Notes: a model not told the origin generated them from the sequence alone. Counted from the stretch's first letter, positions 26,239 to 58,100 are shown. The stretch: DNA of 64,000 nucleotides from Candidatus Woesearchaeota archaeon (GCA_047603125.1 JBLKOU010000001.1:8171-72170), one strand, 5' to 3'. Numbers and translations are program-made.

Positions 26239-27888
26239 ATGAGTAAAGCAGAGCAATTAGCAACCAAGCAGCGTGAAATTGGTGTTGCAGAATTTTTTGC
26301 ACGAAATAGACATCTTCTTGGATTTGATAATAAAGTAAAAGCACTCATGACAACAATTAAAGAGGCTGTCGATAACTCCCTTGACGCATGTGAGGAGGCA
26401 GAAATACTTCCTGAAATTATTGTTGAAGTCATTGACATGGGCAATGATCGTTTTAAAGTAGTTATCGAGGATAATGGCCCTGGTATTGTGAAAAAACAAA
26501 TTCCAAAAATCTTTGCAAAACTCTTATATGGTTCGAAGTTTCATTCATTAAAAATGAGCCGTGGTCAACAAGGTATTGGTATCTCTGCATCTGTTTTATA
26601 TGGTCAGCTTACAACGGGCAGACCCGCAAAAATTACATCGAAAACGGGACCAACAGATCCTGCGCATTATTATGAATTGAAATTAAACACAAAAACAAAC
26701 GAGCCTGAAATTGTCACTGACACAATTATAGATTGGCCAAAGGAAAGTGGAACAAAAATTGAAATTGATTTGGAGGCAACATATCAAAAAGGCGCACGCT
26801 CGATTGATACGTATTTAAAACAAACAGCCATCACAAATCCGCATTGTACAATTATTTATACAAATCCGAAAGCTGAGCAAATTATTTTTCCACGAGCAAT
26901 TGAAGTTATTCCGGCAGCTGCTCAAGAAATTAAACCGCACCCATATGGGGTTGAATTAGGAACATTGCAGTCGATGTTAGAAATTACACCGGCAAAAACA
27001 GTTCAATCATTTTTACAAACTGAATTTTCACGTGTAAGCGCACAAGTTGCAAAAGAAATTTGTGAGAACGCAGCTTTATTGCCAAATACATCTCCGAAGA
27101 AAATAACGCGGGATCAAGCAGAAAAAATTATTCGTGCAATTGCCAAAACTAAGATTATGGCGCCGCCAACTGACTGTATTTCTCCAATTGGTCAAGATCA
27201 GCTAGAAAAAGGGTTGAAAAAAGAAATTAATGCGGAATTTTATACAACGATTACACGCTCACCAAGTGTGTATCGAGGAAACCCTTTTATTATAGAAGTT
27301 GCAATTGCCTACGGAGGAGATCAGCCTGCAGATCAGCTTGCAAATGTGATGCGATTTGCAAACCGAGTTCCACTTTTATATCAACAAGGAGGCTGTGCGG
27401 TAAATAAAGCAGTCTCAAGTTTAAATTGGAAGCCGTATGGGTTACAACAGAGTAGAGGTTCTGTACCTGCAGGTCCATTGACAATTGCTGTTCATATCGC
27501 TTCGGTCTGGGTTCCGTTTACTTCAGAGAGTAAGGAAGCGATTGCGCATTATCCTGAAATTATAAAGGAAATGAAATTAGCATTACAAGAAGTTGGAAGA
27601 AAACTGGGAACATATATTAATAAGAAAAAACGTGTTGGTGTTGAATTAAAAAAACGCTCCTACATTCAAAAATATATCCCACATGTAAGTGCTGCGTTGT
27701 TAAAATTATTAGAATTACCTGATGATAAAAAGGCAGATTTAGAAGAAAAGCTCGCTGCAATTTTAGAAAAAACGCGAGGAGAAATTGAAGAGCTTGCTTT
27801 TGATGCATCAAAAAATAAAGATTTTGACAAAGAATTTGCATCGATAGGAAGAAATGATCAAGAGGAGGAAACAGAAGATGAGTTCTAA
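26239..27888 (+). CDS. top6B: DNA topoisomerase VI subunit B
   Basis: GHKL ATPase Bergerat motifs ([20 protein letters not shown]), transducer domain. Confidence 0.95.
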
Positions 27889-28975
27889 GCAACCAAAGGC
27901 ATCATTAAAGCCAATTCAAGATGTAGCAAATCAAATTTACACAAATATTCTTGCATATAAACCGCCTATTTTATCGATGCCACTTCGTTCACTTTCAAAT
28001 GTATCGTATAATCCGAATGTTGGGTTTTTTGAATTAACAGGAAAATATAAGGATAGAAAATTAACGGCCTCAACAATTAAAACATTTGCACAAACTTTGC
28101 ACATGCTTACACTTGCAAAAGAATTAGCACTAGCAGCTGATGAGGCAACAAAAAGAGAAGCGTATTATATTTCAAAAAATTGGGGTGAAGCTAAGTTTAA
28201 TGAGCAGCCAGAATCCGATCTTGTCATGGATGATGTTGAGGCGATGCTTAGTGTAAACCGAGAAGTTATTGGTTTTATTCCAGAAGAGAAAGGTGGTGCT
28301 GTTGCTGGAAAGCTTGTTGTTCTTGATAAAGATGTCGATTCAGGTGAGCAGCTTCGCATTGATTGTACGAAATTTGGAAGTGGGGCATATTCTATTCCGA
28401 GCAAAGTTGAAGATCTTGGATTTGAGACTGATGCAACATTTATTTTAGCAATTGAAACGAGTGGTATGTTTCAACGATTAGCAAAACAAAATTATTGGAA
28501 AAAGGCAAATTGTATTCTCGTTGCAATGGGTGGTGTTCCAACAAGGGCAACACGGCGTTTTATTAGACGTTTATCAGATGAGAAAAATTTGCCAGTTTAT
28601 GTTTTTACTGATGGAGATTTTTATGGGTATTTTAATATTTATAGAACATTAAAAGTCGGTTCTGGAAATGCAGCACATATTAACGAATTTTTCTGTGTGC
28701 CAAATGCGCGTTTTATTGGTGTAACGCCCCAAGATATTATTGATTATAATTTACCAACGCATGCACTCAAAGATATTGATATTAAGCGCGGTCGAGATGC
28801 AGCAAAAAACGATCCATTTGTCCAAACGCATAAAGAATGGCAGCAAGCAATTGAGCAGATGACAAAGCTCAAAAAGCGTGTAGAGCAGCAAGCGTTTGCC
28901 AAGTATGGGCTTAATTATGTTATCGACACGTATTTACCTGAGAAGTTAGGCAATAAGAAAAAATGGTTGCCTTGA
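27854..28975 (+). CDS. top6A: DNA topoisomerase VI subunit A (Spo11-like)
   Basis: TOPRIM/5Y-CAP with [13 protein letters not shown]...[14 protein letters not shown]; may start at ATG 27878. Confidence 0.95.
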
Positions 28976-33234: not shown

Positions 33235-34323
33235 ATGAAGTGGTTTTTGCTCCTCGGTATCCTGGTATTACTTCCAATAAGTCTAAGTTTTTCAGAGCAA
33301 TATCTAAATGTTAACAGGAATACGTATCTGACAGTTCAGCCTCCGTATGAGCTTGTTCCTCAAATTGAATTATTAATGGATAGAAGCGCACAAATGCTTA
33401 CAGTACAAGTACAAGAAGAAGATGCTTCGGATAATCCCGGCGATTTATACAATCGATATACGGTAAATGCAAGCGCACCTTTTACACAAATCCGTGCAAT
33501 GATTCGCATGGAGAGAAGTGTAGAGCATGACCCTATTGTTTATGCCTATGAAAATCAAACACGAAAAGAGTTTACACCGGTTTTAGTGATGAGTGATAGT
33601 CGATATAGGACATTTTCTGTTTCTCTTCCTGGAGTACATGAATTTTATGTAGGTTTTGCAAGAGAGGAAGAGACAATCACGGTTCTAGAAGAAGAAACCG
33701 AAGATCAAAATAATCAAACAGTTCAAAATCAAACGCAGGACTCTCAACCGTCACCACCAACACTTGCAGGGGCAACTTCTCAACAGCCATCTTCGCAAGT
33801 ATTTGTCTATGTTGGCTTAGGAATCTTTGCACTTGTTGGAGTTTTTGTTGGAGTGGCAGTTGTTCGAAAAAAACGTGCGATGCGCACATACGATCATGAA
33901 AAAGTTGAGTTTCGTTTTCAAGGACAAACAGATATGCCTGTTCAGGATGAAAAAACAGAACCGCATAAAATTATCACTTCTCTTGAAGATGCAATTAAAG
34001 ATTTAGCTCGACAGCAAAAAACGGTTGGGGAGATGATGCTTGTTTTGATTAACCAAGGATTTGACGTTTCGCAGATATTGGACACAATTCGGGCAGTTGA
34101 GCCACAACTCTTAAAACAAACACCGCTTGCTCGTTTAGCAGCGGATATTGTTGCAAATAAGCAAACACATTTAGGTGATGACTTGCATCTACAGGCTTGG
34201 GAGAAGAAAATTCGGTATTTACTCTCTTTTGTTGCTCATAAAAAAAGTCAAGGGATGACAAAAGAGCAATTGTACAAAATCCTTTCTAATTGGCCCAAAG
34301 AAATATTGGATGAGATAGTATGA
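33235..34323 (+). CDS. bitopic membrane protein: signal peptide, extracellular domain, TM, cytoplasmic domain; hypothetical
   Basis: N-terminal signal; TM FVYVGLGIFALVGVFVGVAVV followed by RKKR. Confidence 0.45.
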   Translation: MKWFLLLGILVLLPISLSFSEQYLNVNRNTYLTVQPPYELVPQIELLMDRSAQMLTVQVQEEDASDNPGDLYNRYTVNASAPFTQIRAMIRMERSVEHDPIVYAYENQTRKEFTPVLVMSDSRYRTFSVSLPGVHEFYVGFAREEETITVLEEETEDQNNQTVQNQTQDSQPSPPTLAGATSQQPSSQVFVYVGLGIFALVGVFVGVAVVRKKRAMRTYDHEKVEFRFQGQTDMPVQDEKTEPHKIITSLEDAIKDLARQQKTVGEMMLVLINQGFDVSQILDTIRAVEPQLLKQTPLARLAADIVANKQTHLGDDLHLQAWEKKIRYLLSFVAHKKSQGMTKEQLYKILSNWPKEILDEIV

Positions 34324-35057
34324 AGCCATACACACTATTATTTGAGGATGCAAGTATGTATTTACTTGACACATTGGAACAAGATTTTCATTGCTCAGCA
34401 GGTGTTGTTCCAAAAGAACAACTCATTGTTGGAAAAACAGTTATGACGAAAAAAGGTGTGCAAGGGCATCTTTCAAAAACTCGTTTTGTGGATGGCTTTC
34501 GAAAATTAAAACGCGGCGCACAAATAATTACGCCAAAAGATATTGGCCATATTCTTGCACATACATTCGTTGATAAGCAAACGGTCTGTATTGATGCAGG
34601 TGCAGGAAGCGGTGCAATGTCGTGCGCACTCGCACATTATGCAAAAAAAGTATATTGTTATGATGTTCGCGAAGATCATTTGGCACTTGCACTTGATAAT
34701 GCACAAAAGCTTGGTTTGAAAAATGTAGTTGGCACATTACATGATGTGTATTCTGGTTTTAAACATAAAGCCGATGTTATTGTTCTGGATTTACCCGAAC
34801 CCTATAAATGTGTTGAGTCAAGTGCAAAAGCTCTTTCTATTGGTGGTTATTTAGTATGCTATGTTCCAGGTGCAAATCAGATGCATCAAGTAAGTGTTGC
34901 ACTAATGAATCATCCGAGTTTTCATGTGTTAAAATCAATAGAGTTAATAGAGCGTGAATGGAAAATTGGTGAGAAAGTACTGCGCCCGCAAACAAATAGT
35001 TGTATGCACACAGGATTTTTAGTGTTCGCAAAGAAAGTAAAAGATGTTGAGAATTAA
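34320..35057 (+). CDS. trmI: tRNA (adenine-N1)-methyltransferase TrmI (Gcd14 family)
   Basis: GCD14-like N-terminal beta domain; SAM motif VCIDAGAGSGAMS; VIVLDLPEP. Confidence 0.7.
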   Translation: MKPYTLLFEDASMYLLDTLEQDFHCSAGVVPKEQLIVGKTVMTKKGVQGHLSKTRFVDGFRKLKRGAQIITPKDIGHILAHTFVDKQTVCIDAGAGSGAMSCALAHYAKKVYCYDVREDHLALALDNAQKLGLKNVVGTLHDVYSGFKHKADVIVLDLPEPYKCVESSAKALSIGGYLVCYVPGANQMHQVSVALMNHPSFHVLKSIELIEREWKIGEKVLRPQTNSCMHTGFLVFAKKVKDVEN

Positions 35058-36817
35058 ATTTTATATAATTCGTTTTTTTGAATTTGCTCTTGTTCCATTT
35101 GTGAATGAGCTTTATTTGCCCGTGGTCTGTTTGTCTGTTCATCTCTACGAAATGTGAGTTGCACGTCTTGTAAAAAAGTGTTCATTCCTTCTTGTAGGCC
35201 AAATGGACCCATGACGTGACCTGATTTTGCAGGTTCACCTTCAAATACGAGGAGTTTATCACTGAGATAATCAATAAAAAGAAGGTCGTGGTCTATGATG
35301 AGTGCAGTTTTCCCATTTTCGACAGCAAAATCCTTGAGTATCTTTGAGACAACAAGTCGTTGTTCTGTATCTAAATATGCACTTGGCTCATCAAGCACAT
35401 AGAGGTTTGCTTCTTGGCTTAAACAGTACGCGATTGCAACATTTTGTAATTGTCCTCCGGAAAGAGAATTGAGAGGCTGGAGCGCAATCTTATCAAGTTG
35501 AAGTGGTTTTACTAAAATATGTTCGAATTTTTCAAATGCAGTTGAAAGAACATTCATAACAAGTTCTTCGCTTTGCGTATCAATATGTTGCGGTTTGTAT
35601 GAGATTTTTGTCTGTAAGTCAATTGTCCCATCTGTTGGTTTTTCTACACCAGCAAGCAATTTTGCAAATGTGGTTTTTCCAATACCGTTTTCTCCTAAAA
35701 TTCCAATTACATCTTTTCTTTGCAATTCTCCAGGTTTTACGGTGAGTGTAAACGATCCTTGCTTTTTTGTAAGCTGCGGCCATTGCGTTAAGGTTGCCTG
35801 TTCTTTATCTGAGCGTTCTTGACGAGTATGAAAGTGTATTTGATGATCGCGAAATTGGACATTCTCTTCTTTTAAATATCCATCCAAATACATATTAATT
35901 CCTGCTTTTGCAGATTTTGCTTGACTGACAATTCCGTATGCCGTTTGACTTCCATAAATGATGTGAATAACATCGGACATATAATCAAGCATAATTAAGT
36001 CGTGTTCAATGACCATAACGGCTGTGTGTTCATCAGCAAGTTCTCGGATAAATTTTGCCAATATGATGCGCTGTTTAATATCTAAAAAGCTAGAGGGCTC
36101 ATCAAAAATATAGACATTTGCTGTTTTTGTGGCAGTTGCACCGATTGCAACACGTTGGAGTTCTCCTCCAGAGAGTGTTTGTATGTCTTGGGTGAGTAAA
36201 GGTGCAAGATGTAATTTTTCAATAACCATTTGCAGACGAGTTTGATCTGAAGCTGCTTTTTCTAAGAGTGTTTGTACAGTGCCTTGAAACTGTGTTGGAA
36301 TAAAATTAATTGCTTGCGGTTTATATGCAACAGTGATTTTTTTATCTCTGAGTTGCTCAAAATATGTTTGGGCAATTGTTCCCTTATAATGATTGATAAG
36401 CTTTTGATATGTGGTGTCCGGCTCATTTTCTCCGAGGTTTGCAAACTCGATGCCACTTAATATTTTTACTGCTGTCGATTTTCCAATACCGTTTCTTCCA
36501 ACAAGCCCAACAACTTTTCCCATAACGGGGATAGGAAGATTATAGAGACGAAAACCATTTTCGCCATATCGATGAATGGGGTTACTTTGCGCTTCTTGGG
36601 GAAGTCTGACAAGTTTAATCGCGTTAAATGGACATTTTTTTGCACAGATTTGATGTGCTTGTGTTGTCACATCTTCTCCAATAGCTGCTTTTCCATCTTC
36701 GCCTATATGAAATCCTACGCCACCCATTCGATTTACAGGATCAAATTTAATACATTCATGTGCACAAGTGTGCGGACTACATCTTTGCTTATCGACAATA
36801 GCAAGTCTTTTTTCCAT
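35054..36817 (-). CDS. abcE1: ABCE1 (RNase L inhibitor/Rli1) ribosome-recycling ATPase
   Basis: N-terminal tandem 4Fe-4S ferredoxin cysteines (CSPHTCAHEC...CAKKCP) followed by two ABC domains; start at ATG 36817. Confidence 0.9.
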   Translation of the reverse strand: MEKRLAIVDKQRCSPHTCAHECIKFDPVNRMGGVGFHIGEDGKAAIGEDVTTQAHQICAKKCPFNAIKLVRLPQEAQSNPIHRYGENGFRLYNLPIPVMGKVVGLVGRNGIGKSTAVKILSGIEFANLGENEPDTTYQKLINHYKGTIAQTYFEQLRDKKITVAYKPQAINFIPTQFQGTVQTLLEKAASDQTRLQMVIEKLHLAPLLTQDIQTLSGGELQRVAIGATATKTANVYIFDEPSSFLDIKQRIILAKFIRELADEHTAVMVIEHDLIMLDYMSDVIHIIYGSQTAYGIVSQAKSAKAGINMYLDGYLKEENVQFRDHQIHFHTRQERSDKEQATLTQWPQLTKKQGSFTLTVKPGELQRKDVIGILGENGIGKTTFAKLLAGVEKPTDGTIDLQTKISYKPQHIDTQSEELVMNVLSTAFEKFEHILVKPLQLDKIALQPLNSLSGGQLQNVAIAYCLSQEANLYVLDEPSAYLDTEQRLVVSKILKDFAVENGKTALIIDHDLLFIDYLSDKLLVFEGEPAKSGHVMGPFGLQEGMNTFLQDVQLTFRRDEQTNRPRANKAHSQMEQEQIQKNELYKI

Positions 36818-36920
36818 GTGCGTGTGAACTTGTTTGTGTTTTATAAAGGTAGTGGGTCTATGGGCGTAATTGTGGTGATATTTCAATAAGTTTAAAAAAC
36901 CAAACAAAGTATAGTTTGTT

Positions 36921-39900
36921 ATGAGGTTTGCGTTATTTGTATTCGGACTCTTTTTACTCGCATCAGTGAGTATTTCCTTTGCACAAACACAGACCTATTT
37001 TGTGGAATTTGTGGATCAGAGTCCAGAATTAGAGTCGAGTCAGACCCTTCGAATACAATCTATGAATCAAATGTCACGGCAAGATATTCGCGAAGTGGCA
37101 CTTTCTCGGTTAGTTGATGATGAGGTGCGTGATACTCGATCAGGAGATATGCGCGTACAGCATTCGCAGATAGAGGAGTCATCATTGACTATTAGACATG
37201 TTTATGAACGCTATGGGAATATGATTGCCATGGATTTAACTCCTGAGCAAAAGTCTCAATTATTAGATTCAGAACTGGTAACAAGAATAACAAAAAGTTT
37301 GCCGGTGCAAGCGTTTTTAAGCGATACAATTGATTTACTTGATATACCTGCGATATGGGCTTTAGAAATAAATGGTGAGCCAGTGGTGGGTTCTCAAGTA
37401 ACAATTGCTGTAATTGATACTGGTATTGATTATACGCATAGTGCATTTGGTAATTGTGAGCGAACAGCAAATATTTCGGATGGAAGTTGCAGTAGAGTCA
37501 TAGGGGGTTATAATTATATAGATGGAAATGATGATCCTTTTGATGATAACGGTCATGGAACACATGTGGCTGCGATTGTCGGAGGGAATTGGGCTCAGCC
37601 AGGAGTGGCGCCCGGTGTTGATTTTCTTGCATATAAAGTATTGAATTCTACAGGTGGTGGAGATTTTAACGATGTTGTTGCTGCCATTGAGCGTGCGGTT
37701 GAAGATGGTGCCGATATTCTTGTTTTGAGTTTGGGAGCATATTGTGTGAACGGATATAATGGTAGTTGCGGACCAGAAGATGTTGTAAGTCAGCTTGTGA
37801 ATAATGCAACACTTCTTGATAATGTGAGTGTTGTTGTAGCAGCAGGGAATTGTGGGGGATCTCAATCGACTCAATGTCCTGATATTTATGGGGATCGCTC
37901 TATTGCAACACCAGGAGCAGCAAAGCACGCGTTGACGGTTGGTTCTATAACAAAATCAAATACGATTTCAGGTTTTAGTTCTCGCGGCCCTGTTGAGTGG
38001 ACAAATGCTTCAGGTGAGCAAAATATGACGAAGCCAAATATTGTTTCCTATGGAAGTTCAATTTCAGCGGCATGTTCTAGTGAAGATACTTTTTGTCCTC
38101 CTATACCTAATGCCAATATTTCTAAATCGGGCACATCTATGGCGGCTCCGCATGTTGCTGGTGCAGTAGCTCTTATTCGTCAAGTGGCGCCAGCACTATC
38201 TTCGGTGCAAATTAATGAGTTGTTGACATCAACGGCGCAAGATTTAGGATATGATAATAATACTCAAGGGATGGGGATGCTCAATATTACGAGGGCTTTG
38301 GGTGAAATTATTCCCATTGAGTTAGATATAATGGTTTATGAGAATGAAACTGCAGTTTTAGCAAATATCTCTGTAAATGGAACAAATTTGCAAAATTACA
38401 CGTTTTTATTTGCTCCAAATGCGTCGGCGCAATTTGTACAAATAACAAACAATACTGATCCTATAGAAAATGAACAGGTGTTCTCTCTTTTGAAAACCGA
38501 TATTGAAGATGGACAAACGCTTCACTTTGAATTAACAGCTTTCAATGTACAAGAGCAACAATTTTCATTAATCCAAAATTATACTTATTATGAAGCGCCG
38601 TTAATTACTGTTCATTCACCAATAAACCAAACAATATATGAGGCAAGTCCTATAGTTAATGTGAGCGTGACAAGCGCATCAGAAATTGATGAAATTTGGT
38701 TTTTACATAATGGTACGAATATGTCATATAATGACTCACCAAATTATACTTTTTCTCAAGGGATACACAATATAACTGTTTTTGCAAATAATACTTTTGG
38801 ACAACAATCCAGTGTCTTTATTGAGTTCACAGTTAATGATACTCTTGCACCAAGATTGACAATTCATTCTCCTCTCAATACGACATATCATGTTTCTCAA
38901 ATTCCTATAAACATTTCGGCAATAGACCCTCATCTTGACCAAATTTGGTTTTTTAATGGGACACATAATGTCACGTATGAAGATCCAATAACACTCTACT
39001 TTTCAGATGGGGTTCATACGCTAATAGCATATGCTAATGATACATTTGGAAATACAAATCAAACAAATGTGACATTTACAGTGGATACGACACCACCAGT
39101 TATTACATTAGAATCTGCTAATCTCACAAATGCAAGTAAGCCTCTTTATTATTTGCACGCTTCTACAAATAGGAATCTCACTCAAGCTAATATTACGTAT
39201 TTTAATAAAACATATCCTGCCCTCATAAATGAAACGAATGTAACATATCCTTTGTATGTTCCTGTTTTTAATGAAAGTTTTTCTGTTCAAATTTCTGTTC
39301 AAGATGTATTTAATAGAACTGCACAAAAAAATGTTTCTTTGCAAGTAAATTTCAACGGAACCATAAATGGCTCTGTTTTTGGAGATGCTTTTTCAATTGC
39401 AAGTGATGTTGAGGTTTCAGTTAATGTTACGAATCAAACAGATGTGCAGCCAATTCGTATCAATCGTATGCAAACAAATCGCTCGATAGTAGAATTTTCA
39501 CATAATTTTACACAGGGATCATTGTTTTTGAATGCAATTCGCATTCGTGTGGATGAACAGGAAAATGCATCGCGCGTGTTAGTTTCAGGCGTAAATAAAA
39601 CAAAAACGGTGTATTTAGAGTTGCAAGGAAATACTTCTCGATTTTCAAGTATTTGTGTGGTTGATCGTTTAGAGTTTGATTTTGTATCTGATTGCCCACT
39701 GTATGTGGACAAATTTCCGAACAGTACTGGTTCATATAATTTTACTCGCGATAATCAAACAATTCGCTTAGAAGGGTTGCAACATTCGCAAGTGCAGCAA
39801 GTTTGTACGGAGAGTTGGAGCTGTGTGGAGTGGTCAAGTTGTAGTAGTTCTGGTGAGCAAACCTGTGACGTTTATGATGATGCAAACAGTTGTGGTACTA

Positions 39901-40274
39901 CGCACAACCAACCAGTATTGACACAGAGTTGTACACCGCCATCCCAAGACCCAGGTAATGGTGGCGGAGATTCTCCAGGAGGCCCGGGCAGTTCAGGTTT
40001 TGTTCCTGCGAGTGCACCATCAACTCAAGAGCAGACACAGCAAACTGTTGAAACACCTTCTCAAAATCAAACATTTGAAGAAGAGCCACAAGAGGATTCA
40101 CGAGATCAACAAGAGCAACAGCCAGCACAAGAAGCTCAACCTGCTGTGCAACAAGGTGAACTAACAACGCCCGCACCGCCAGTATCTTTTTGGATATTTT
40201 TTGGAATTGCAACGCTTGTGAGTGCGGTAATCGTGGGCTTTATTTTACGCCATCGTCGAGAGAAATACATTTAA
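36921..40274 (+). CDS. secreted S8 subtilisin-like serine protease fused to large glycosylation-sequon-rich repeat domains with C-terminal TM anchor (cell-surface/S-layer-like)
   Basis: Signal peptide; catalytic triad VIDTGIDYTHSAF (Asp), HGTHVAAIVGG (His), GTSMAAPHVAGA (Ser); >50 N-x-S/T sequons; Cys-rich module; PGNGGGDSPGGPGSSG linker; TM + RHRREKYI. Confidence 0.9.
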   Translation: MRFALFVFGLFLLASVSISFAQTQTYFVEFVDQSPELESSQTLRIQSMNQMSRQDIREVALSRLVDDEVRDTRSGDMRVQHSQIEESSLTIRHVYERYGNMIAMDLTPEQKSQLLDSELVTRITKSLPVQAFLSDTIDLLDIPAIWALEINGEPVVGSQVTIAVIDTGIDYTHSAFGNCERTANISDGSCSRVIGGYNYIDGNDDPFDDNGHGTHVAAIVGGNWAQPGVAPGVDFLAYKVLNSTGGGDFNDVVAAIERAVEDGADILVLSLGAYCVNGYNGSCGPEDVVSQLVNNATLLDNVSVVVAAGNCGGSQSTQCPDIYGDRSIATPGAAKHALTVGSITKSNTISGFSSRGPVEWTNASGEQNMTKPNIVSYGSSISAACSSEDTFCPPIPNANISKSGTSMAAPHVAGAVALIRQVAPALSSVQINELLTSTAQDLGYDNNTQGMGMLNITRALGEIIPIELDIMVYENETAVLANISVNGTNLQNYTFLFAPNASAQFVQITNNTDPIENEQVFSLLKTDIEDGQTLHFELTAFNVQEQQFSLIQNYTYYEAPLITVHSPINQTIYEASPIVNVSVTSASEIDEIWFLHNGTNMSYNDSPNYTFSQGIHNITVFANNTFGQQSSVFIEFTVNDTLAPRLTIHSPLNTTYHVSQIPINISAIDPHLDQIWFFNGTHNVTYEDPITLYFSDGVHTLIAYANDTFGNTNQTNVTFTVDTTPPVITLESANLTNASKPLYYLHASTNRNLTQANITYFNKTYPALINETNVTYPLYVPVFNESFSVQISVQDVFNRTAQKNVSLQVNFNGTINGSVFGDAFSIASDVEVSVNVTNQTDVQPIRINRMQTNRSIVEFSHNFTQGSLFLNAIRIRVDEQENASRVLVSGVNKTKTVYLELQGNTSRFSSICVVDRLEFDFVSDCPLYVDKFPNSTGSYNFTRDNQTIRLEGLQHSQVQQVCTESWSCVEWSSCSSSGEQTCDVYDDANSCGTTHNQPVLTQSCTPPSQDPGNGGGDSPGGPGSSGFVPASAPSTQEQTQQTVETPSQNQTFEEEPQEDSRDQQEQQPAQEAQPAVQQGELTTPAPPVSFWIFFGIATLVSAVIVGFILRHRREKYI

Positions 40275-40297
40275 ACAAGTGGTTCTTTTTTGTGTAC

Positions 40298-40462
40298 ATG
40301 AAGTGCGCAATTACAGGAAAACCAATCGAAAAAACATTTCTCGATAAGCTTATTGGAACTGTCATTAAAGATGAGAATGGAAAAAAGTATTATGTGAGTG
40401 CACAGGCACAGCAAAAATATAAAACAAAAGCTGAACTTTTAAAACAGCTCTCATCCAAATAG
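40298..40462 (+). CDS. small hypothetical protein (54 aa)
   Basis: Internal ATG of 90-aa ORF; MKCAITGKPIEKTFLDKLIG... Confidence 0.25.
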   Translation: MKCAITGKPIEKTFLDKLIGTVIKDENGKKYYVSAQAQQKYKTKAELLKQLSSK

Positions 40463-40466
40463 AACA

Positions 40467-40538
40467 AGCCCCTGGCGTGATTTGAACACGCGACCTTTTG
40501 CTTACGAGGCAAACGCTCTACCACTGAGCTACAGAGGC
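40467..40538 (-). tRNA. tRNA-Thr (anticodon CGT)
   Basis: Reverse complement GCCUCUGUAGCUCAGUGGUAGAGCGUUUGCCUCGUAAGCAAAAGGUCGCGUGUUCAAAUCACGCCAGGGGCU; anticodon loop CUCGUAA; no CCA encoded. Confidence 0.85.
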
Positions 40539-40564
40539 TTATTTTTACTGAAAACAAGTCCCTC

Positions 40565-44229: not shown

Positions 44230-47200
44230 ATGGTCAGGAGTTTTCGATTATGTATGCACACGCAAGAAGAATTCACCATAGATAGGCAGCGCTATGATAG
44301 CGCAAATGAGGAGCGTTTACTCTATCGTGCAAAGGATGGGATTAGCGAGCAGCTTGTTAGAGAAATCTCAAAAAGCAAAAATGAGCCTGAGTGGATGCTT
44401 CAAAAGCGATTAAAGGGTTTTGAGCTGTTTTTAAAGATGGAAAATCCAACATGGGGGCCATCGCTTGAAAAATTAGATTTATCAAAAATTTCTTACTTTT
44501 TGCGTCCAGATGCAAAGAAAAATGCTACGAGTTGGGATGATGTCCCTGATGATATCAAAAATACATTTGATAAGCTGGGAATTCCAAAAGCAGAACGAGA
44601 AGCATTGGCTGGAGTTGGTGCACAATATGATTCTGAAACCGTGTATCATAATTTACAAAAAGAATTACAAGATCAAGGAGTGGTGTTTATTGATTGCGAT
44701 GAGGCTGTTCACAAATATCCTGATTTAGTAAAAAAATATTTTATGACAAGCTGTGTTCCTATGAATTTACATCGATATAGTGCGCTTCATGCTGCTGTTT
44801 GGTCGGGAGGGACATTTATTTATATTCCTAAGGGAGTCAAAGTAGAAAAGCCATTGCAAGCATACTTTCGTATGAATGCACGAAAAGGTGGGCAATTTGA
44901 GCATACGCTTATTATTGTTGATGAGGGTGCGGAGGTTTCTTATATTGAAGGGTGTTTTGGGGCAGGGACGCAGATAACGACAAATCCTGATTATAAGCCA
45001 ATTGAGCAAATTCGCTCAGGTGAAAAAATACTGACAAGCGAAGGAGAGTTTAAGCATTCAAAAGATATTCAAGCACAGCCATATACGGGTAAAATGGCAA
45101 AAATCCAACTCTGGGGTGATACGACGCAAACAATTAACGTGACGCAAGAACATCCATTTTTATATGTTGATAAAAAGCATGCTCGTGAGAAAAATAAGCA
45201 GTTTACTCCTCGCTGGAACATGCCAGCATATTTTCAAAAAGGAGATTATTTATGTATGCCGATTAATCAAGTTGTAAAACACAACGACGAACATACATTT
45301 GTGTATTTACGCCATATTGATGGGAAACGTGAACGCGTAGAATGGCCAGTTCAGGTGTCTGCAGAATTATTTCGGTTAATAGGGTACTATTTAGCACAAG
45401 GAAGTGTGAGTAGTAATGCGTATTTGAATTTTTCATTTCATTTTCAAGAGCGAGAGTATATTGAAGATGTGAAAAGATGTTTGAAAAAAGTATTTGGGAT
45501 AAAAAAAATACTGGAAATGCACCATAAAAAAAATAATGGGACGAGTTTAGTCGTTTGTTCTGTTGATTTGGCAAGAATCTTTAAAGAATTTGGAAAGAGC
45601 GCAAATACAAAATCATTGCCTGCATGGGTGATTTATGAAAAACCGCATCTACAAAAAGAACTGATTAAGGGCTGGTTTAGAGGGGATGGAAATTATTTTA
45701 AGAAAAAAACAGTTTCAGGGTTAAAAGAAGCAATACGAATAAATACGGTGAGTGAAAAATTGGCAAAACAGGCTCGTGATTTATTATTGCGTCAAGGCAT
45801 AGTTTCCTTTATTAATTCACAAGATCGTCAATCGACAAATAGACAAACTATGTATACTATAGGAATTGGCGGTGAATTTCTTCCCAAAATGGGGGAGCTT
45901 GTTGGAATTTCAATTTCAAAAACACTGAATGGGAAAAAGCGTGCGAGTATGTTCGGGATTGACAAGAAATTTGCATATATTCCTATACGTTCGATTACAT
46001 TTGAACAAGTAACAAATTATCCGGTATATAATTTTGGTGTGACTGATCATCAAACATTTACTGCTGGTGGCGTTGCCGTTCATAATTGCTCAGCTCCGGT
46101 ATACACTGAGAATTCGCTCCATGCAGGATGTGTAGAAATTCATGTCCTCAAAGGTGCAAGAGCAAGATATTCAAGTATTGAGAATTGGTCCAAAAATACG
46201 TATAATCTTAATACAAAGCGTGCCGTTGTTCATGATGATGGAATAATTGAATGGATTAACGGCAATTTAGGTTGCCTAACAGATTCATCAAAGGTATTTA
46301 CTAATCCCCGCGGTCCAAAAAATATATCTGCAATTTCACCGGGAGACAAAGTGCTCAGCTATGATTTTCAAGCAAAAAAAATTGTTCCTGGCACGGTTAA
46401 GCAAATGGTTTATAATGGGGATAGGGAGATTTTTGAAATAACGGCTGCAGGAAGAAGTTTAGAAGCAACTCAAAATCATCCTTTTTTAACATTAAGTAAG
46501 ACTCAAGATAATCCAAAAAAAAATTTTTATTCATATCAATGGAAACCATTGTCTCAGTTACAAGTGGGCGATATGATTTGTGTTACAAAAAACATTCCAA
46601 ACAAAGGCGAGTCTTTTCGTATACCTGCATTATCAGAATATTTACACGTTCAATCCAAAAATCAATATGCGTCTTTTTCCATGTCAACCAAACACCTCCA
46701 TAATTCGAAGATTACTATTCCAAAAAAGACCAATCCTGATTTGATGTGGCTATTAGGATTATTAATAGGGGATGGTTTTGTGGATGTTTCGCAAAATAAA
46801 ATTAATATTGCAACACATTATCTTGAAGATTATAGAGAATCGCAACTCATACGAATTCTTAAAGAGCAATTTAATTATACTGTAACTGAGAAAAAAGAAC
46901 GTTTTGTCATTATTAATTCGAAAAAACTTTGTGAATTATTTACAGTTCTTGGAGTATCGGGTACAGCAAAAACAAAACGTATACCTAATTGGGTTTATAC
47001 GCTTCCTGAAATTGAGATGGAGGCTTTTTTGGGAGGCTATTTTGATGCTGATGGACACGTACAAAAAAATGGTGCGTATTTAACAAGTTGTAATAAATCT
47101 TTATTAGAAGATTTTCGTTTATTGGCAATTCAATTAGGGTATGGTATTTCAAGAATATTTAAACATATGTCTGAGGGTACGAGAACAATTTTAGGGGTTG

Positions 47201-47997
47201 ATTGTATTGCTTCAGATAGTTTTCGATTGTTACTCAGTGGAGAAAAAATTTGTTCACTTGATTCGCGTTCGAAAAAGAAAAAGGCAAAGCTTTTACAAAT
47301 TACGTCAAAAAGAAATTTTCGAACAGCAAAGAATCAAAATTTCTCTTCAAAAACAACGGATGAAATTGGCTTTGCAAGAATTGATGCTATTATAAAAAAA
47401 GGTATACGTCCCACATTTGATATTGAGGTTGAAAAATATCACAATTTTATTGCTAATGGGCTGATTGTACATAATAGCGGAGTCACGATGCTCTACCCGG
47501 GTTCAATGTTGATGGGTGATCGTTCAAAATCTGATTTTATTGGTATTGCGCTAGCTAATAAAGATCAAAACCAAGATACTGGTTGTAAAATTATTCATAT
47601 CGGTGAGCAGACATCATCAACGATTACTTCCAAATCAATTAGTCTTAATGGCGGTATTTCAACATATCGTGGATTAGTGAGTATCCGAAAAGGTGCGAAA
47701 GGAGCAGCAACTAGTGTGGAGTGTGATGCGCTCATGATTGATAATGAGAGTCAATCAAATACATATCCGTATATGGATATTCATGAAAAAGATGTTGACG
47801 TTGCACATGAGGCTACTGTAGGAAAAATAAGTGAAGAGCAAATATTTTATTTAATGAGTCGTGGGTTGAGTGAAGAAGTTGCAAAGCAAATGATAGTTTC
47901 TGGTTTTATAGAACCAATTGTCAAAGAATTGCCACTTGAGTATGCAGTTGAATTAAATAAACTCATTGAATTAGAAATGGAGGGGAATTTAGGATGA
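44230..47997 (+). CDS. sufB: Fe-S cluster assembly protein SufB interrupted by two inteins
   Basis: Extein segments match SufB (DEGAEVSYIEG|CSAPVYTENSLHAG..., IEWINGNLG|SGVTMLYPGSMLMGD..., C-terminal SRGLSEEVAKQMIVSGF); 1255 aa = ~476 extein + 378 + 401 intein residues. Confidence 0.9.
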   Translation: MVRSFRLCMHTQEEFTIDRQRYDSANEERLLYRAKDGISEQLVREISKSKNEPEWMLQKRLKGFELFLKMENPTWGPSLEKLDLSKISYFLRPDAKKNATSWDDVPDDIKNTFDKLGIPKAEREALAGVGAQYDSETVYHNLQKELQDQGVVFIDCDEAVHKYPDLVKKYFMTSCVPMNLHRYSALHAAVWSGGTFIYIPKGVKVEKPLQAYFRMNARKGGQFEHTLIIVDEGAEVSYIEGCFGAGTQITTNPDYKPIEQIRSGEKILTSEGEFKHSKDIQAQPYTGKMAKIQLWGDTTQTINVTQEHPFLYVDKKHAREKNKQFTPRWNMPAYFQKGDYLCMPINQVVKHNDEHTFVYLRHIDGKRERVEWPVQVSAELFRLIGYYLAQGSVSSNAYLNFSFHFQEREYIEDVKRCLKKVFGIKKILEMHHKKNNGTSLVVCSVDLARIFKEFGKSANTKSLPAWVIYEKPHLQKELIKGWFRGDGNYFKKKTVSGLKEAIRINTVSEKLAKQARDLLLRQGIVSFINSQDRQSTNRQTMYTIGIGGEFLPKMGELVGISISKTLNGKKRASMFGIDKKFAYIPIRSITFEQVTNYPVYNFGVTDHQTFTAGGVAVHNCSAPVYTENSLHAGCVEIHVLKGARARYSSIENWSKNTYNLNTKRAVVHDDGIIEWINGNLGCLTDSSKVFTNPRGPKNISAISPGDKVLSYDFQAKKIVPGTVKQMVYNGDREIFEITAAGRSLEATQNHPFLTLSKTQDNPKKNFYSYQWKPLSQLQVGDMICVTKNIPNKGESFRIPALSEYLHVQSKNQYASFSMSTKHLHNSKITIPKKTNPDLMWLLGLLIGDGFVDVSQNKINIATHYLEDYRESQLIRILKEQFNYTVTEKKERFVIINSKKLCELFTVLGVSGTAKTKRIPNWVYTLPEIEMEAFLGGYFDADGHVQKNGAYLTSCNKSLLEDFRLLAIQLGYGISRIFKHMSEGTRTILGVDCIASDSFRLLLSGEKICSLDSRSKKKKAKLLQITSKRNFRTAKNQNFSSKTTDEIGFARIDAIIKKGIRPTFDIEVEKYHNFIANGLIVHNSGVTMLYPGSMLMGDRSKSDFIGIALANKDQNQDTGCKIIHIGEQTSSTITSKSISLNGGISTYRGLVSIRKGAKGAATSVECDALMIDNESQSNTYPYMDIHEKDVDVAHEATVGKISEEQIFYLMSRGLSEEVAKQMIVSGFIEPIVKELPLEYAVELNKLIELEMEGNLG
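44953..46086 (+). mobile_element. SufB intein 1 with LAGLIDADG homing-endonuclease domain
   Basis: Starts Cys (CFGAGTQ), ends HN before +1 Cys (CSAPVY); DOD motifs LIGYYLAQGSV and IKGWFRGDGNY. Confidence 0.85.
46273..47475 (+). mobile_element. SufB intein 2 with LAGLIDADG homing-endonuclease domain
   Basis: Starts Cys (CLTDSS), ends GLIVHN before +1 Ser (SGVTM); DOD motifs LLGLLIGDGFVD and FLGGYFDADGHV. Confidence 0.85.
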
Positions 47998-48932
47998 AGT
48001 ATGGCTTGTATATACGTGTCGATCCCTTCGTTGAGCTAGATTTTTCAAATGCAAGTCAAAAGTATAAACCAACTATTCAAGGCGATGCAGTTGAAATTAC
48101 TCGAAAAAAAAATGCAGGGGAGTTTGATGCAGACGTACCTGAATATACGCATATCAGTAGCAATAAAAATCAACGCATACTTATTACTGATGATGTTGCA
48201 AAAACGATTTCTCACGGTGTTATAGTTGAATGTTTTACCAATTGTCAAATTCATTATCAACTGACTTCAAAAGCTCAAGCTCTTGTGAAATTACCAATTA
48301 TTATTATTGCACATGCAAATAGTCATGTTGAATTTTTTGGAACAATTCGCCCAGAAAATTCTCATGCGGTGATTTCTCGAACGGCTAGAGTTTTAGAAGG
48401 TGCAAGAGTGGACTGGAATGAGTTACATATTGGTGGAGATTTTATTCGAGCGCCTTATTTGAATCTTTTAGAAAAACCAGAAGCCACAGGTAATATTCGT
48501 GTGTATTCGGTTGCAAGAGATGAGCATAAACACGACATTTATACTGAATCGCGACATATTGCCAATCATACCAATAGCGATATTATTACACGAAGCGTTC
48601 TTTTAGATAAATCGCAAACATTGAGTAGAGGGCTTGTTCGAATTGAAAAGGATGCATTTGGTTCACAAGGATATGAAAAACAAGACGCACTCCTTTTAGG
48701 TGAGCACGCGCAAGCTGATGCCATACCAAATTTAGAAATACAAAACCACGATGTCAGTTGTAGTCATGGTTCAACTGTAGGTCGCATTGATCAAGATGCG
48801 CTTTTCTATTTGAGAAGTCGTGGGATTTCATTGGAACAAGCGCAGCGTCTCATTATTTATAGTTACTTTGCTCCCTTTTTAGAAAATCAAGAGTCTGTTG
48901 CAAAAATACTTCAAGAGGTCTTAGAATTATGA
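47994..48932 (+). CDS. sufD: Fe-S cluster assembly protein SufD
   Basis: C-terminal helical SufBD signature (DALFYLRSRGISLEQAQRLIIYSYF); ATGA coupling to sufB. Confidence 0.85.
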   Translation: MKYGLYIRVDPFVELDFSNASQKYKPTIQGDAVEITRKKNAGEFDADVPEYTHISSNKNQRILITDDVAKTISHGVIVECFTNCQIHYQLTSKAQALVKLPIIIIAHANSHVEFFGTIRPENSHAVISRTARVLEGARVDWNELHIGGDFIRAPYLNLLEKPEATGNIRVYSVARDEHKHDIYTESRHIANHTNSDIITRSVLLDKSQTLSRGLVRIEKDAFGSQGYEKQDALLLGEHAQADAIPNLEIQNHDVSCSHGSTVGRIDQDALFYLRSRGISLEQAQRLIIYSYFAPFLENQESVAKILQEVLEL

Positions 48933-50077
48933 TGCAAAAGGCAGATTTTCCTTTCTTTGAAAAAAATCCAAATTTACTTTATTTAGATTCTGCTGCGACA
49001 TCTCTCAAGCCACAAGTGATGATTGATGCTGTTCAACAGTACTATACTGCACAAAGTGTAAGTGTGCATCGTGGATTATATCCTTTAGCAAAAAAAGTAA
49101 CGGATGAATTTGAAATGGCACGATCAATTATTGCGCAGGCAATAAACGCGAGACCCGAACAAATCGTTTTTGTGCCAAGTGTTACGTATGCATTGACAAT
49201 GCTTGCTAATAATCTTGCTTGCGGTAAACGGGTGTTATTGACAGACTTAGAACATCATGCAAATCTTGTCTGCTGGCTTGAGCAAAAAAAGAAGGGCGCG
49301 CATATTGATTTTTTATCGTTGACTCAAACCTTTGATGTGGAGTATGATGTGAACAAAATAAAAAACGCATCTATTATTTCTACAACGCATGTCTCAAATG
49401 TGACCGGAACAGTTGTTGATGTGAAACGACTGCGTCAATTTTCGCCAAATGCAACAATTATTGTCGATGGGGCACAAGCATTTGGACATATGCCTGTAGA
49501 TGTACAAGAATTAGATTGTGATTTTTATGTTTTTAGTGCACATAAATCGCTTGGGCCAACGGGCCTGGGTATGTTGTATGTGAAAGATCCTGAAGCTTTG
49601 AATCCTTTTGTTTTTGGGGGCAATATGGTTGAGCAAGTAACACAAAAGGGTGCGACATTTGTTAAAGCTCCCCATGTATTTGAAGCAGGAACACCTGCGA
49701 TTGCACAAGTCCTTGGTTTTGCAAAGTCGGTTGCATATTTACAAGAGCATTCAATTGAGCGTATTCACTCCTACATTTGTGGGTTGACAAATTTTGCAAA
49801 AGAACAACTCTCACAAATTCAAGGTTGTACATTGTATGTGCATGAACAGAGTCCGGGAATACTCTCATTTTCTGTTTCTGGTAAGCATGCACAAGATATA
49901 GTAACATTTTTAGGAGAAAGAGGCGTTTGTGTTCGTTCGGGTCATCACTGTGCAATGCCACTTATTGAAAAAATTTGTAAAGAGGGTACTGTTCGTGTAA
50001 GTTTACATGCATATAATACAAAAGAGGATATACAATTGTTTTGTAAATATTTACAAGAAGTATTACAGGTGATATAA
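48929..50077 (+). CDS. sufS: cysteine desulfurase SufS (class V aminotransferase)
   Basis: LYLDSAATSLKP, PLP-Lys region FYVFSAHKSLGPTGLGMLYV, C-terminal catalytic Cys (SGHHCAMP). Confidence 0.9.
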   Translation: MMQKADFPFFEKNPNLLYLDSAATSLKPQVMIDAVQQYYTAQSVSVHRGLYPLAKKVTDEFEMARSIIAQAINARPEQIVFVPSVTYALTMLANNLACGKRVLLTDLEHHANLVCWLEQKKKGAHIDFLSLTQTFDVEYDVNKIKNASIISTTHVSNVTGTVVDVKRLRQFSPNATIIVDGAQAFGHMPVDVQELDCDFYVFSAHKSLGPTGLGMLYVKDPEALNPFVFGGNMVEQVTQKGATFVKAPHVFEAGTPAIAQVLGFAKSVAYLQEHSIERIHSYICGLTNFAKEQLSQIQGCTLYVHEQSPGILSFSVSGKHAQDIVTFLGERGVCVRSGHHCAMPLIEKICKEGTVRVSLHAYNTKEDIQLFCKYLQEVLQVI

Positions 50078-54904: not shown

Positions 54905-55632
54905 CGGATGTCGTTATTGAATTAAAGGATGTGAAAAAAATATACAAAATGGGTAAAACCAAAGTCCATGCGCTTGACGGTGTAACATTACAAGTAAAAA
55001 AAGGAGAGTTTGTCTCTATTGTTGGAAAGTCGGGGAGTGGAAAATCGACGCTTGTTAATCAAGTAGGATGCCTTGATACGCCAACTACGGGAGAAGTATT
55101 GCTTTCTGGAAAAAATATTGCAAAATTACATGAAAGTCGACTTGCACAAATTCGTGGGAAAAAAATTGGTTTTATATTTCAAACATTTAATCTCATGCCG
55201 ACATTGAGCGTGTATGAAAATATTGCATTGCCAATGGCGTTTCAGGGAATAAGTGATAGTGCGATGGATAAAAATGTTAAAATGGCGCTTGAGCTTGTTG
55301 ATCTTCAAGACCGTGCGCACCATAAACCTGCGGAATTATCTGGTGGGCAGCGACAGAGAGTTGCAATTGCGCGTGCACTTGCAAATAATCCAGAAGTTAT
55401 TCTTGCAGATGAGCCAACTGGAAACCTCGATAGTAAAACGGGAAGACAGATAATGGAGTTTTTACTGCAACTACATGAGAAAAATAGTGTTACTATAATT
55501 ATGGTAACACATGATGACGATTTAGCCAAATGGGCACAGAGAACAGTAGTGCTTTCTGATGGTAAAATAATCAAAGAACTAAAACATACAAAGGCGGTGC
55601 GAACTGCCGCAATAAAAGCATATAGAGGTTGA
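54901..55632 (+). CDS. ABC transporter ATP-binding protein (MacB/LolD/FtsE type)
   Basis: Walker A GKSGSGKST, signature LSGGQRQRVAIARAL, Walker B ILADEPTGNLD. Confidence 0.9.
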   Translation: MTDVVIELKDVKKIYKMGKTKVHALDGVTLQVKKGEFVSIVGKSGSGKSTLVNQVGCLDTPTTGEVLLSGKNIAKLHESRLAQIRGKKIGFIFQTFNLMPTLSVYENIALPMAFQGISDSAMDKNVKMALELVDLQDRAHHKPAELSGGQRQRVAIARALANNPEVILADEPTGNLDSKTGRQIMEFLLQLHEKNSVTIIMVTHDDDLAKWAQRTVVLSDGKIIKELKHTKAVRTAAIKAYRG

Positions 55633-56867: not shown

Positions 56868-56881
56868 ACATATTTTTGTAA

Positions 56882-58099: not shown

Positions 58100-58100
58100 A

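Follow-up and report, generated by a model that had tools for sequence, protein, structure and literature searches.

Introduction

Archaea of the DPANN group rely on other cells, yet little has been established about the workings of their surfaces. One gene of a Candidatus Woesearchaeota archaeon, at positions 36,921 to 40,274 of the 64,000-nucleotide stretch analyzed here (GCA_047603125.1, JBLKOU010000001.1:8171-72170; hereafter the window), encodes a protein in which a subtilase domain is joined to a large, sequon-laden extension, raising the question of what such a protein is: an enzyme displayed on the cell surface, a subunit of the surface layer (S-layer), the precursor of a soluble protease or an adhesin. 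A reading made from the DNA alone (hereafter the sequence-only reading) had favored an archaeal S-layer or surface glycoprotein with built-in protease activity. In this work we address the question by combining profile searches, exhaustive homology searches, sequence shuffling and structure prediction. Our results indicate that the protein is likely to be a type I membrane-anchored, probably N-glycosylated, surface subtilisin-like serine protease of this Woesearchaeota (DPANN) archaeon, and identify as its most novel element not the protease, but an uncurated cassette formed by an all-beta domain (hereafter domain X) and a Cys-rich module.

Results and discussion

The catalytic domain

By every sequence criterion tested, the protein reads as a member of peptidase family S8. 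The Pfam profile PF00082 (Peptidase_S8) aligns continuously over its whole length (positions 1-288 of 288) with amino acids (aa) 157-452, at an E-value of 5.5e-49 and 167.4 bits against a cut-off of 21.8. The catalytic residues D166, H212 and S406 and the oxyanion residue N310 do not vary in either of two alignments, with 121 and 36 homologs; the active site is thus intact, in agreement with the prepro-S8 architecture and complete D/H/S triad reported by the sequence-only reading. The S8 match is compact, and a Pfam scan of the protein detected no PA domain (PF02225), which is present in some distant homologs. The catalytic domain also contains four closely spaced Cys pairs (179/190, 275/283, 311/319 and 385/392).

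The nearest relatives in the PDB by sequence are the Thermococcus kodakarensis protease Tk-SP (3afg/9ues; E ~2e-32) and the subtilisins. Two AlphaFold2 models were generated, one for aa 723-1010, using an alignment of 37 relatives, and one for the full-length protein, which has a mean predicted local distance difference test (pLDDT) score of 74. Structural comparison of the full-length model with Foldseek returned ProN-Tk-SP (3afg; E 1e-25) as the best match, followed by 3whi, Vpr, SpyCEP and fervidolysin. The match to 3whi, an unprocessed pro-subtilisin E, spans 459 columns with the propeptide included, at a target-normalised template modelling score (TM-score) of 0.84. Tk-SP and pro-subtilisin E, the closest relatives of solved structure, are active proteases made with propeptides.

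The segment that precedes the catalytic domain is modeled as an I9-like fold composed of strands at aa 24-30, 90-95, 101-106 and 120-125 and helices at aa 53-66 and 108-115, and PF05922 occurs in many homologs of the protease. Ahead of it lies a Sec-type signal peptide, for which cleavage is predicted after aa 21 from the small residues at positions -3 and -1 (S-F-A), following the von Heijne rule.

Directional enrichment of N-glycosylation sequons

The protein contains 56 N-x-S/T sequons in 1117 aa (5.0 per 100 aa), whereas composition-preserving shuffles of its sequence yield 14.8±3.4 and at most 27, bearing out the earlier description of dozens of sequons at extreme density. Enrichment is most evident in aa 470-960, with 45 sequons against 10.1±2.7 in shuffles, so that 45 of the 55 Asn residues in this region (82%) lie within a sequon. 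The reverse motif (S/T-x-N) occurs there 11 times for 10.1 expected, which makes the enrichment directional and not compositional, and neither Q-x-S/T nor D-x-S/T is enriched. Neither the signal peptide nor the propeptide contains any sequon. Four cytoplasmic neighbors of the gene, taken together, carry 5 sequons in 2324 aa (0.2 per 100 aa), and every other open reading frame (ORF) of the window stays at or below 2.1 sequons per 100 aa. The best-matching homolog, P0001, has eleven sequon positions in common with the protease at an overall identity of 36%, and sequons are also kept in the consensus of the C-terminal cassette described below. This distribution is the signature expected of an exported protein under selection for N-glycosylation.

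A related feature of the same region (aa 470-960; window positions 38329-39800) is the complete absence of N-x-x-S/T, for which 10.5±2.7 instances are expected, alongside the 4.5-fold enrichment in N-x-S/T; the residue immediately following a sequon is never Ser or Thr. This pattern would fit the location of sequons on beta strands with alternating exposure.

A predicted beta-sandwich rod on a membrane-anchored stalk

The region following the catalytic domain had been described as ~750 aa of repeat domains. The beta sandwiches are recovered in our models, but the non-catalytic ectodomain comprises ~620 aa (466-1084), of which ~500 aa form five different sandwiches, and only two units qualify as repeats. 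These are two tandem immunoglobulin (Ig)-like domains, matched by the Pfam families Big_7 (E 1.3e-5) and Big_13 (E 1.6e-4) and modeled at aa 561-638 and 645-721. A hidden Markov model (HMM) built from them finds exactly two copies, at aa 557-640 and 641-724, and no other unit is detectable as a sequence repeat. No tandem repeats were found in the DNA of the gene; the repeats exist at the protein level only and are old. The remaining sandwiches are distinct and were recognized in the structure models only; a Pfam scan yields no family match for the first of them, D1. Homologs P0121-P0137 match the Ig-like repeat part alone, and a word-based homolog search with aa 465-1010 likewise retrieved the Ig repeats only, so that an exhaustive search was needed to detect the cassette. 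The model of aa 723-1010 is all beta, with a mean pLDDT of 88.3 and a predicted TM-score of 0.79, and the Foldseek matches of the rod models are generic Ig and fibronectin type III (FnIII) sandwiches.

The C-terminal half of the architecture agrees with the earlier account, with a 6-Cys module, a Pro/Gly/Ser/Gln-rich stalk, a single transmembrane (TM) helix and a short basic tail present in that order (Table 1). Structure prediction, put forward by the sequence-only reading as a check on its repeat region, likewise places both the beta-sandwich domains and the TM helix in the models. The stalk, which carries one sequon, is predicted to be disordered over ~80 aa. The C-terminus (...PAPPVSFWIFFGIATLVSAVIVGFILRHRREKYI) contains no LPXTG motif, and when the C-terminal 50 and 158 residues were compared with the NCBIfam models at E<=10, no archaeosortase/exosortase CTERM signal, such as PGF-CTERM, was detected.

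Table 1. Features of the protease gene and its flanking signals, in window coordinates
Feature	Position	Strand	Extent and content	Basis
TATA-box-like element	36891..36899	+	TTTAAAAAA; centre ~26 nt 5' of protease ATG	sequence reading
Protease ORF	36921..40274	+	1117 aa, uninterrupted; TAA stop	
Signal peptide, Sec-type	36921..36983	+	aa 1-21 (MRFALFVFGLFLLASVSISFA / QTQ)	hydrophobic aa 1-23; model helix aa 2-16
Propeptide, I9-like	36984..37340	+	aa 22-140; 0 sequons	model beta-alpha-beta-beta-alpha-beta, aa 24-125
Subtilase (S8) catalytic domain	37341..38315	+	aa 141-465; 10 sequons	PF00082; pLDDT mostly >90
Catalytic D166	37416-37418	+	VIDTGID	invariant in alignments
Catalytic H212	37554-37556	+	HGTHVA	invariant in alignments
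Oxyanion N310	37848-37850	+	AAGN	invariant in alignments
Catalytic S406	38136-38138	+	GTSMAAPH	invariant in alignments
Beta domain D1	38316..38588	+	aa 466-556; 7 sequons	model strands 467-555, pLDDT 47-71
Two tandem Ig-like repeats	38589..39092	+	aa 557-640 and 641-724; 16 sequons	Pfam Big_7/Big_13
D4, Ig/FnIII-like beta sandwich	39093..39356	+	aa 725-812; 11 sequons (12.5/100 aa)	modeled 728-808
Domain X, all-beta	39357..39794	+	aa 813-958; no curated family	phmmer, alignments, HMM; pLDDT 90-97
6-Cys module	39795..39941	+	aa 959-1007 (CTESWSCVEWSSCSSSGEQTCDVYDDANSCGTTHNQPVLTQSC); single copy of widespread ~45-aa repeat	small sheet 956-1003 in model
Stalk, acidic	39942..40172	+	aa 1008-1084; Q/P/G/E/S/T-rich, pI 4.1	pLDDT <50 over 1008-1087
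TM helix and tail	40173..40274	+	aa ~1085-1111; tail RHRREKYI; TAA stop	hydropathy; model helix 1089-1116
T-rich run	40283..40295	+	ttcttttttgtgt; 9 nt past protease stop	sequence reading

A conserved cassette of domain X and a 6-Cys module

When aa 723-1010 were compared exhaustively with 1.84 billion representative sequences using phmmer (E<=1e-3), 705 matches were obtained, many of them with 2-10 tandem copies of the Cys module. The matches fall into two classes. Matches in the first class consist of the ~45-aa Cys module alone, in 1-10 tandem copies with the consensus CTExWxCxxWSxCSxxxQxRTCxDxNxCGTTxxxPxLTQSC. The second class, with 37 relatives, contains a ~190-aa unit in which domain X is followed by one Cys module. 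All its members are sequon-rich, and in 35 of the 37 a TM helix lies 58-267 aa downstream of the unit (77 aa in the protease); at least 15 carry an S8 domain, and the rest have different N-terminal parts or none. One cluster within this class holds hypothetical proteins of both Woesearchaeota and Nanoarchaeota. An HMM of the cassette built from the 37 relatives matches aa 808-1009 of the protease with an E-value of 2e-60. Within domain X, modeled with strands between aa 832 and 953, a Cys pair (C912/C925; C190/C203 in fragment numbering) is invariant and sequons are conserved.

The Cys module of the protease contains cysteines at positions 962, 968, 974, 982, 991 and 1004. The first, third, fifth and sixth are invariant in all 38 sequences, while the second and fourth occur together in 14 (three of them with a shifted fourth Cys, as in the protease), are both absent in 24 and never occur singly; in the protease the fourth Cys is displaced by three residues. 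This covariation argues strongly for a C2-C4 disulfide, and a disulfide at this position would imply that the module is extracytoplasmic. Searches of Pfam, NCBIfam and PDB sequences with the query segment and with the tandem-repeat proteins P0353, P0284, P0258 and P0262 produced no match to the module, and we found no literature specific to this Cys repeat or to DPANN subtilases. The W-x-x-W, Q-x-R and six-Cys pattern is reminiscent of thrombospondin type 1 (TSP1) repeats; a TSP1/TSR identity was tried with a Pfam scan of aa 954-1010 at E<=10, which reported no family.

The module recurs in hundreds of cluster representatives, Woesearchaeota and Nanoarchaeota proteins among them. In P0258 (731 aa), four partial S-layer duplication domains of the Methanosarcina type (PF07752/TIGR01567) alternate with six Cys modules and are followed by a TM helix, an arrangement that suggests a spacing or stalk function of the module within true S-layer-type proteins. 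Four copies are found in P0273, from Candidatus Kerfeldbacteria, a bacterium of the Candidate Phyla Radiation (CPR). Most cassette relatives also display a calcium-binding-like motif, D-x-D-x-D-G-x-x-D-x-x-D, just ahead of domain X; the protease lacks this motif and has NFNGTINGSVFGD in its place. The window contains a single cassette.

Judged by its occurrence across sequences, the cassette with its stalk and TM helix would constitute a reusable membrane-proximal display unit on which the lineage mounts various ectodomains. A bolder proposal, which we regard as doubtful, is that it represents an undescribed, lineage-spanning module for surface display or contact in ultra-small episymbiotic prokaryotes, in which the Cys module would contain three disulfides. 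Were this so, with the Cys module either spacing through or binding the envelope of a partner, proteins of this kind would bring proteolysis to the host surface in a contact-dependent manner.

A mosaic protein within an existing group

A homolog search covering 5.8 billion proteins yielded thousands of S8 matches, many of them giant multidomain proteins. Those with a named source belong mostly to Woesearchaeota, Nanoarchaeota, Aenigmarchaeota and Anstonellales, with a few bacterial ones. The best match, P0001, shows 36% identity across 68% of the length. When GTDB representative genomes were scanned with the protease, only an unrelated Acidobacteria S8 protein was retrieved, at 28% identity. 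Sequon densities of 3.5-5.1 per 100 aa are also present in P0001, P0006, P0007, P0012, P0031 and P0092, and in several sequon-dense homologs the C-terminus consists of a TM helix with a basic tail; in P0001 the TM helix is followed by a long K/S-rich tail.

The two ends of the protein have different closest relatives. The S8 domain is 49% identical to that of P0001, which lacks the cassette, and 32-33% identical to those of cassette-bearing S8 proteins, whereas the cassette region is 42-44% identical to that of cassette-bearing S8 proteins such as P0259, P0271 and P0277. This makes the protease a mosaic rather than a plain ortholog. At the P0001 locus there is neither shared synteny nor an operon partner.

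Because a cassette-bearing group of Woesearchaeota S8 proteins is already represented in databases, the protease is best described as a new member of an existing and mostly unnamed group. Members of this group from Woesearchaeota and Nanoarchaeota, such as P0259, P0271, P0277 and P0336 (MBW3015359.1, annotated as 'S8 family serine peptidase [Candidatus Woesearchaeota archaeon]'), share with it a signal peptide, the S8 domain, a variable beta-rich middle, domain X with the Cys module, a low-complexity spacer, a TM helix and 2-5 sequons per 100 aa. They differ from it in their S8 domains, with the low identity noted above, and in the shifted C4 of the protease's module.

Comparison with characterized systems

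Among solved structures the best relative is Tk-SP, which has the same order of N-terminal propeptide, S8 domain and C-terminal beta domain. The Tk-SP chain in 3afg comprises 539 residues and bears a single C-terminal beta domain, without the five-domain rod, Cys module, stalk and TM anchor. A parallel in design is offered by SpyCEP (5xya/7edd), retrieved by Foldseek, in which a prepro-S8 protease is displayed beyond FnIII/Ig-like domains and a Pro/Gly/Ser/Thr-rich spacer. Further Gram-positive cell-envelope proteinases of this design are lactocepin PrtP and the C5a peptidase ScpA. These enzymes are bacterial, have a PA insertion in the catalytic domain and are attached to peptidoglycan through LPXTG and sortase, unlike the Woesearchaeota protease, with its compact catalytic domain, TM anchor and sequon decoration. 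Large, glycosylated, envelope-associated S8 proteases are also known from archaea, as exemplified by pyrolysin of Pyrococcus furiosus and the S-layer-bound STABLE protease of Staphylothermus marinus. Enzymes of the pyrolysin type have large insertions in the catalytic domain, whereas the compact Pfam match of the protease gives no indication of one.

Within DPANN, the cultivated archaeon Nanobdella aerobiophila encodes thermopsin-like surface proteins (MJ1_0076 and MJ1_0361) that combine 4-7 Ig folds with 14-49 N-glycosylation sites and end in a TM helix; the study describing them puts forward, as speculation, an action on the S-layer proteins of the host (bioRxiv 10.1101/2023.10.27.564410). 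By description, these proteins resemble the protease in uniting a DPANN peptidase with Ig-like folds, many sites and a TM helix; they belong to the thermopsin catalytic family and not to subtilase S8.

Proposed function and alternative explanations

Under the reading we favor, the Sec signal peptide would direct export of the protease, and the I9-like propeptide would, following the subtilase paradigm, chaperone folding of the S8 domain before its autocatalytic removal. The mature, catalytically competent domain would then stand at the tip of a rod in which the five beta-sandwich domains are followed by the 6-Cys module with its disulfides, connected by the disordered acidic stalk to the single C-terminal TM helix, with the short basic tail inside the cell. 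The sequons, all of which lie in the mature part, would most likely be N-glycosylated by an archaeal oligosaccharyltransferase, and the glycans may shield rod and enzyme from proteolysis, self-digestion included, and form part of the cell glycocalyx. The role of such an enzyme would most likely be extracellular or contact-dependent proteolysis, supplying peptides to an auxotrophic, small-genome cell, and it might possibly act on proteins of a host or of a neighboring cell surface.

Several results weigh against this interpretation. The Inhibitor_I9 match of the propeptide is sub-threshold (E 0.017; 16.2 bits against a cut-off of 21.2), D1 is modeled at low-to-moderate confidence, and no AglB/STT3 oligosaccharyltransferase was detected among the scanned ORFs of the window. 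The search of 5.8 billion proteins returned no close ortholog of this exact architecture, its best match being 36% identical. Cleavage within the stalk could, moreover, release the protease from its anchored state. On the supporting side, both aglB and surface peptidases rich in sequons are reported in N. aerobiophila (bioRxiv 10.1101/2023.10.27.564410).

In one alternative, the protein would be the precursor of a released, soluble extracellular protease. Its C-terminal extension and anchor would then be a transient tether, to be cleaved off, and the disordered stalk with its one sequon would be an obvious protease-accessible site. C-terminal extensions are commonly processed in subtilases and are removed in many bacterial and archaeal ones, and Tk-SP and fervidolysin are among the relatives found here with extra C-terminal domains. 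That a TM helix succeeds the cassette in 35 of 37 relatives nevertheless argues that anchoring is the selected function, and a rod covered densely with sequons over its entire length suggests a structure that is exposed and long-lived, leading us to consider a released enzyme improbable. The protein could alternatively serve mainly as an adhesin or structural fibril with an inactive or vestigial protease domain, and its rod-like tandem beta sandwiches do match the adhesin SiiE and an ice-binding RTX adhesin in Foldseek comparisons. Such a role is scarcely credible for a protein in which Asp, His, Ser, the oxyanion Asn and the DTG, HGTH and GTSMAAP motifs are intact and invariant, within an S8 domain modeled at pLDDT >90.

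As for the S-layer or surface glycoprotein of the sequence-only reading, the surface-exposed, membrane-anchored part of that proposal stands, but the S-layer part finds no support: Pfam and NCBIfam scans of the whole protein and of its parts detect no S-layer family domain (such as PF07752/TIGR01567), and the archaeosortase signal is missing. We thus deem it very unlikely that the protein forms the S-layer lattice as its glycoprotein, or belongs to the S-layer as an integral subunit that includes a protease domain, even if its signal peptide, Ig-like domains, sequons, Thr/Pro/Gln-rich stalk and TM anchor resemble those of many archaeal S-layer glycoproteins. The sole S-layer link is an indirect one, the presence of the Cys module together with PF07752/TIGR01567 in the otherwise unrelated P0258, and the Deinococcus HPI S-layer appears among structural matches that are generic Ig/FnIII sandwiches. 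The many unrelated ectodomains carried by the cassette fit a display anchor better than a lattice subunit. In N. aerobiophila, furthermore, the S-layer candidate MJ1_0160 is the most highly expressed gene and encodes a non-enzymatic Ig-fold protein, whereas the thermopsin-like peptidases are not highly expressed (bioRxiv 10.1101/2023.10.27.564410).

Accepting a surface-anchored protease, one may still ask whether it serves general nutrition or a specifically episymbiotic role, in attaching to the surface layer of a host or opening it by proteolysis. Attachment or remodeling of a host surface was also raised by the sequence-only reading and is plausible as speculation. The episymbiotic role, which we hold to be a minor but real possibility, draws on the Woesearchaeota lineage, on the same case having been published as speculation for the sequon-rich, TM-anchored peptidases of N. 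aerobiophila (bioRxiv 10.1101/2023.10.27.564410) and on the presence of the Cys module in P0273, from a CPR bacterium and thus from another ultra-small episymbiotic lineage. The protein has, on the other hand, neither a lectin-like or adhesin-specific domain nor operon partners, and a comparative genomics study infers, for members of a single Woesearchaeota subgroup, the possible secretion of peptidases that break down organic matter (PMC8421398).

The membrane-anchored surface protease proposed here is ordinary in kind and, on its own, leaves current understanding unchanged. It does provide a clear and well-delimited surface-displayed example, with one of the highest sequon densities of its family, and is thus well suited to glycoproteomics and to asking whether such enzymes feed the cell or remodel the host envelope. 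The delimitation of domain X and of the Cys repeat, in turn, means that family models could improve the annotation of DPANN and CPR surface proteomes.

Genomic context

The ATG at 36921 is the earliest start codon past an in-frame stop of the same frame. The TATA-box-like TTTAAAAAA is inferred to be an archaeal promoter, which would give rise to a leaderless or short-leader mRNA, and the T-run ttcttttttgtgt may act as an archaeal oligo-T terminator. The gene appears to be monocistronic. A scan for sigma-70 promoters and bacterial terminators gave background levels only, as expected in an archaeon. The divergent upstream neighbor encodes ABCE1/RLI (35054-36907, minus strand), for which the mechanically predicted ORF of 617 aa, with a TTG start, is over-extended. 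A 587-aa form starting at an internal Met (36817) is 100% identical to P0138, a Candidatus Woesearchaeota protein, and adopting this start leaves an intergenic region of ~100 bp between the two genes, with the TATA-like box inside. This identity assigns the source to the Woesearchaeota, and ABCE1 and topoisomerase VI both mark it as an archaeon. Downstream, a possibly coding, 55-aa Lys-rich ORF (MKCAITGKPIEK...; 40298-40462, plus strand) lies between the T-run and a tRNA-Thr(CGU) gene (40466-40539, minus strand) that is convergent to the protease gene.

The window also encodes both subunits (A and B) of topoisomerase VI, GyrA, a Trm61-like methyltransferase, MscS, SufBD and tRNAs. A bacterial-type DNA gyrase A (4604-7051, plus strand) is thus found together with archaeal topoisomerase VI B and A (26239-28975, plus strand). 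At 44230-47997 (plus strand), a 1255-aa protein with a SufB/SufD core is interrupted by inteins, with Pfam reporting Intein_splicing in two stretches, the LAGLIDADG_3 homing endonuclease in three, and Hint modules; it is followed by SufD (47994-48932) and a SufS-like class-V aminotransferase (48929-50077). The 362-aa product of 33235-34323 (plus strand), for which there is no Pfam family, likewise has the layout of an orphan type I membrane protein. It combines a signal peptide and a Q/S/T/P-rich stretch with a single TM helix near its center (aa 185-213) and a cytoplasmic domain of ~150 aa. Two overlapping multi-TM ORFs occupy different frames of 49-2222 (plus strand), one at 49-1218 with at least 8 TM segments and one at 1155-2222 with 6; neither matches a Pfam family or STT3/AglB, and they could be a single frameshifted large membrane protein or two orphan ones. 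Finally, 55629-56867 (plus strand) encodes a CARDB-domain protein that has both a signal peptide and a TM helix at its C-terminus. Two MacB/FtsX-type ABC permeases (56882-58099 and 58101-59297) lie directly downstream, and the three genes (55629-59297) may form an export or surface module.

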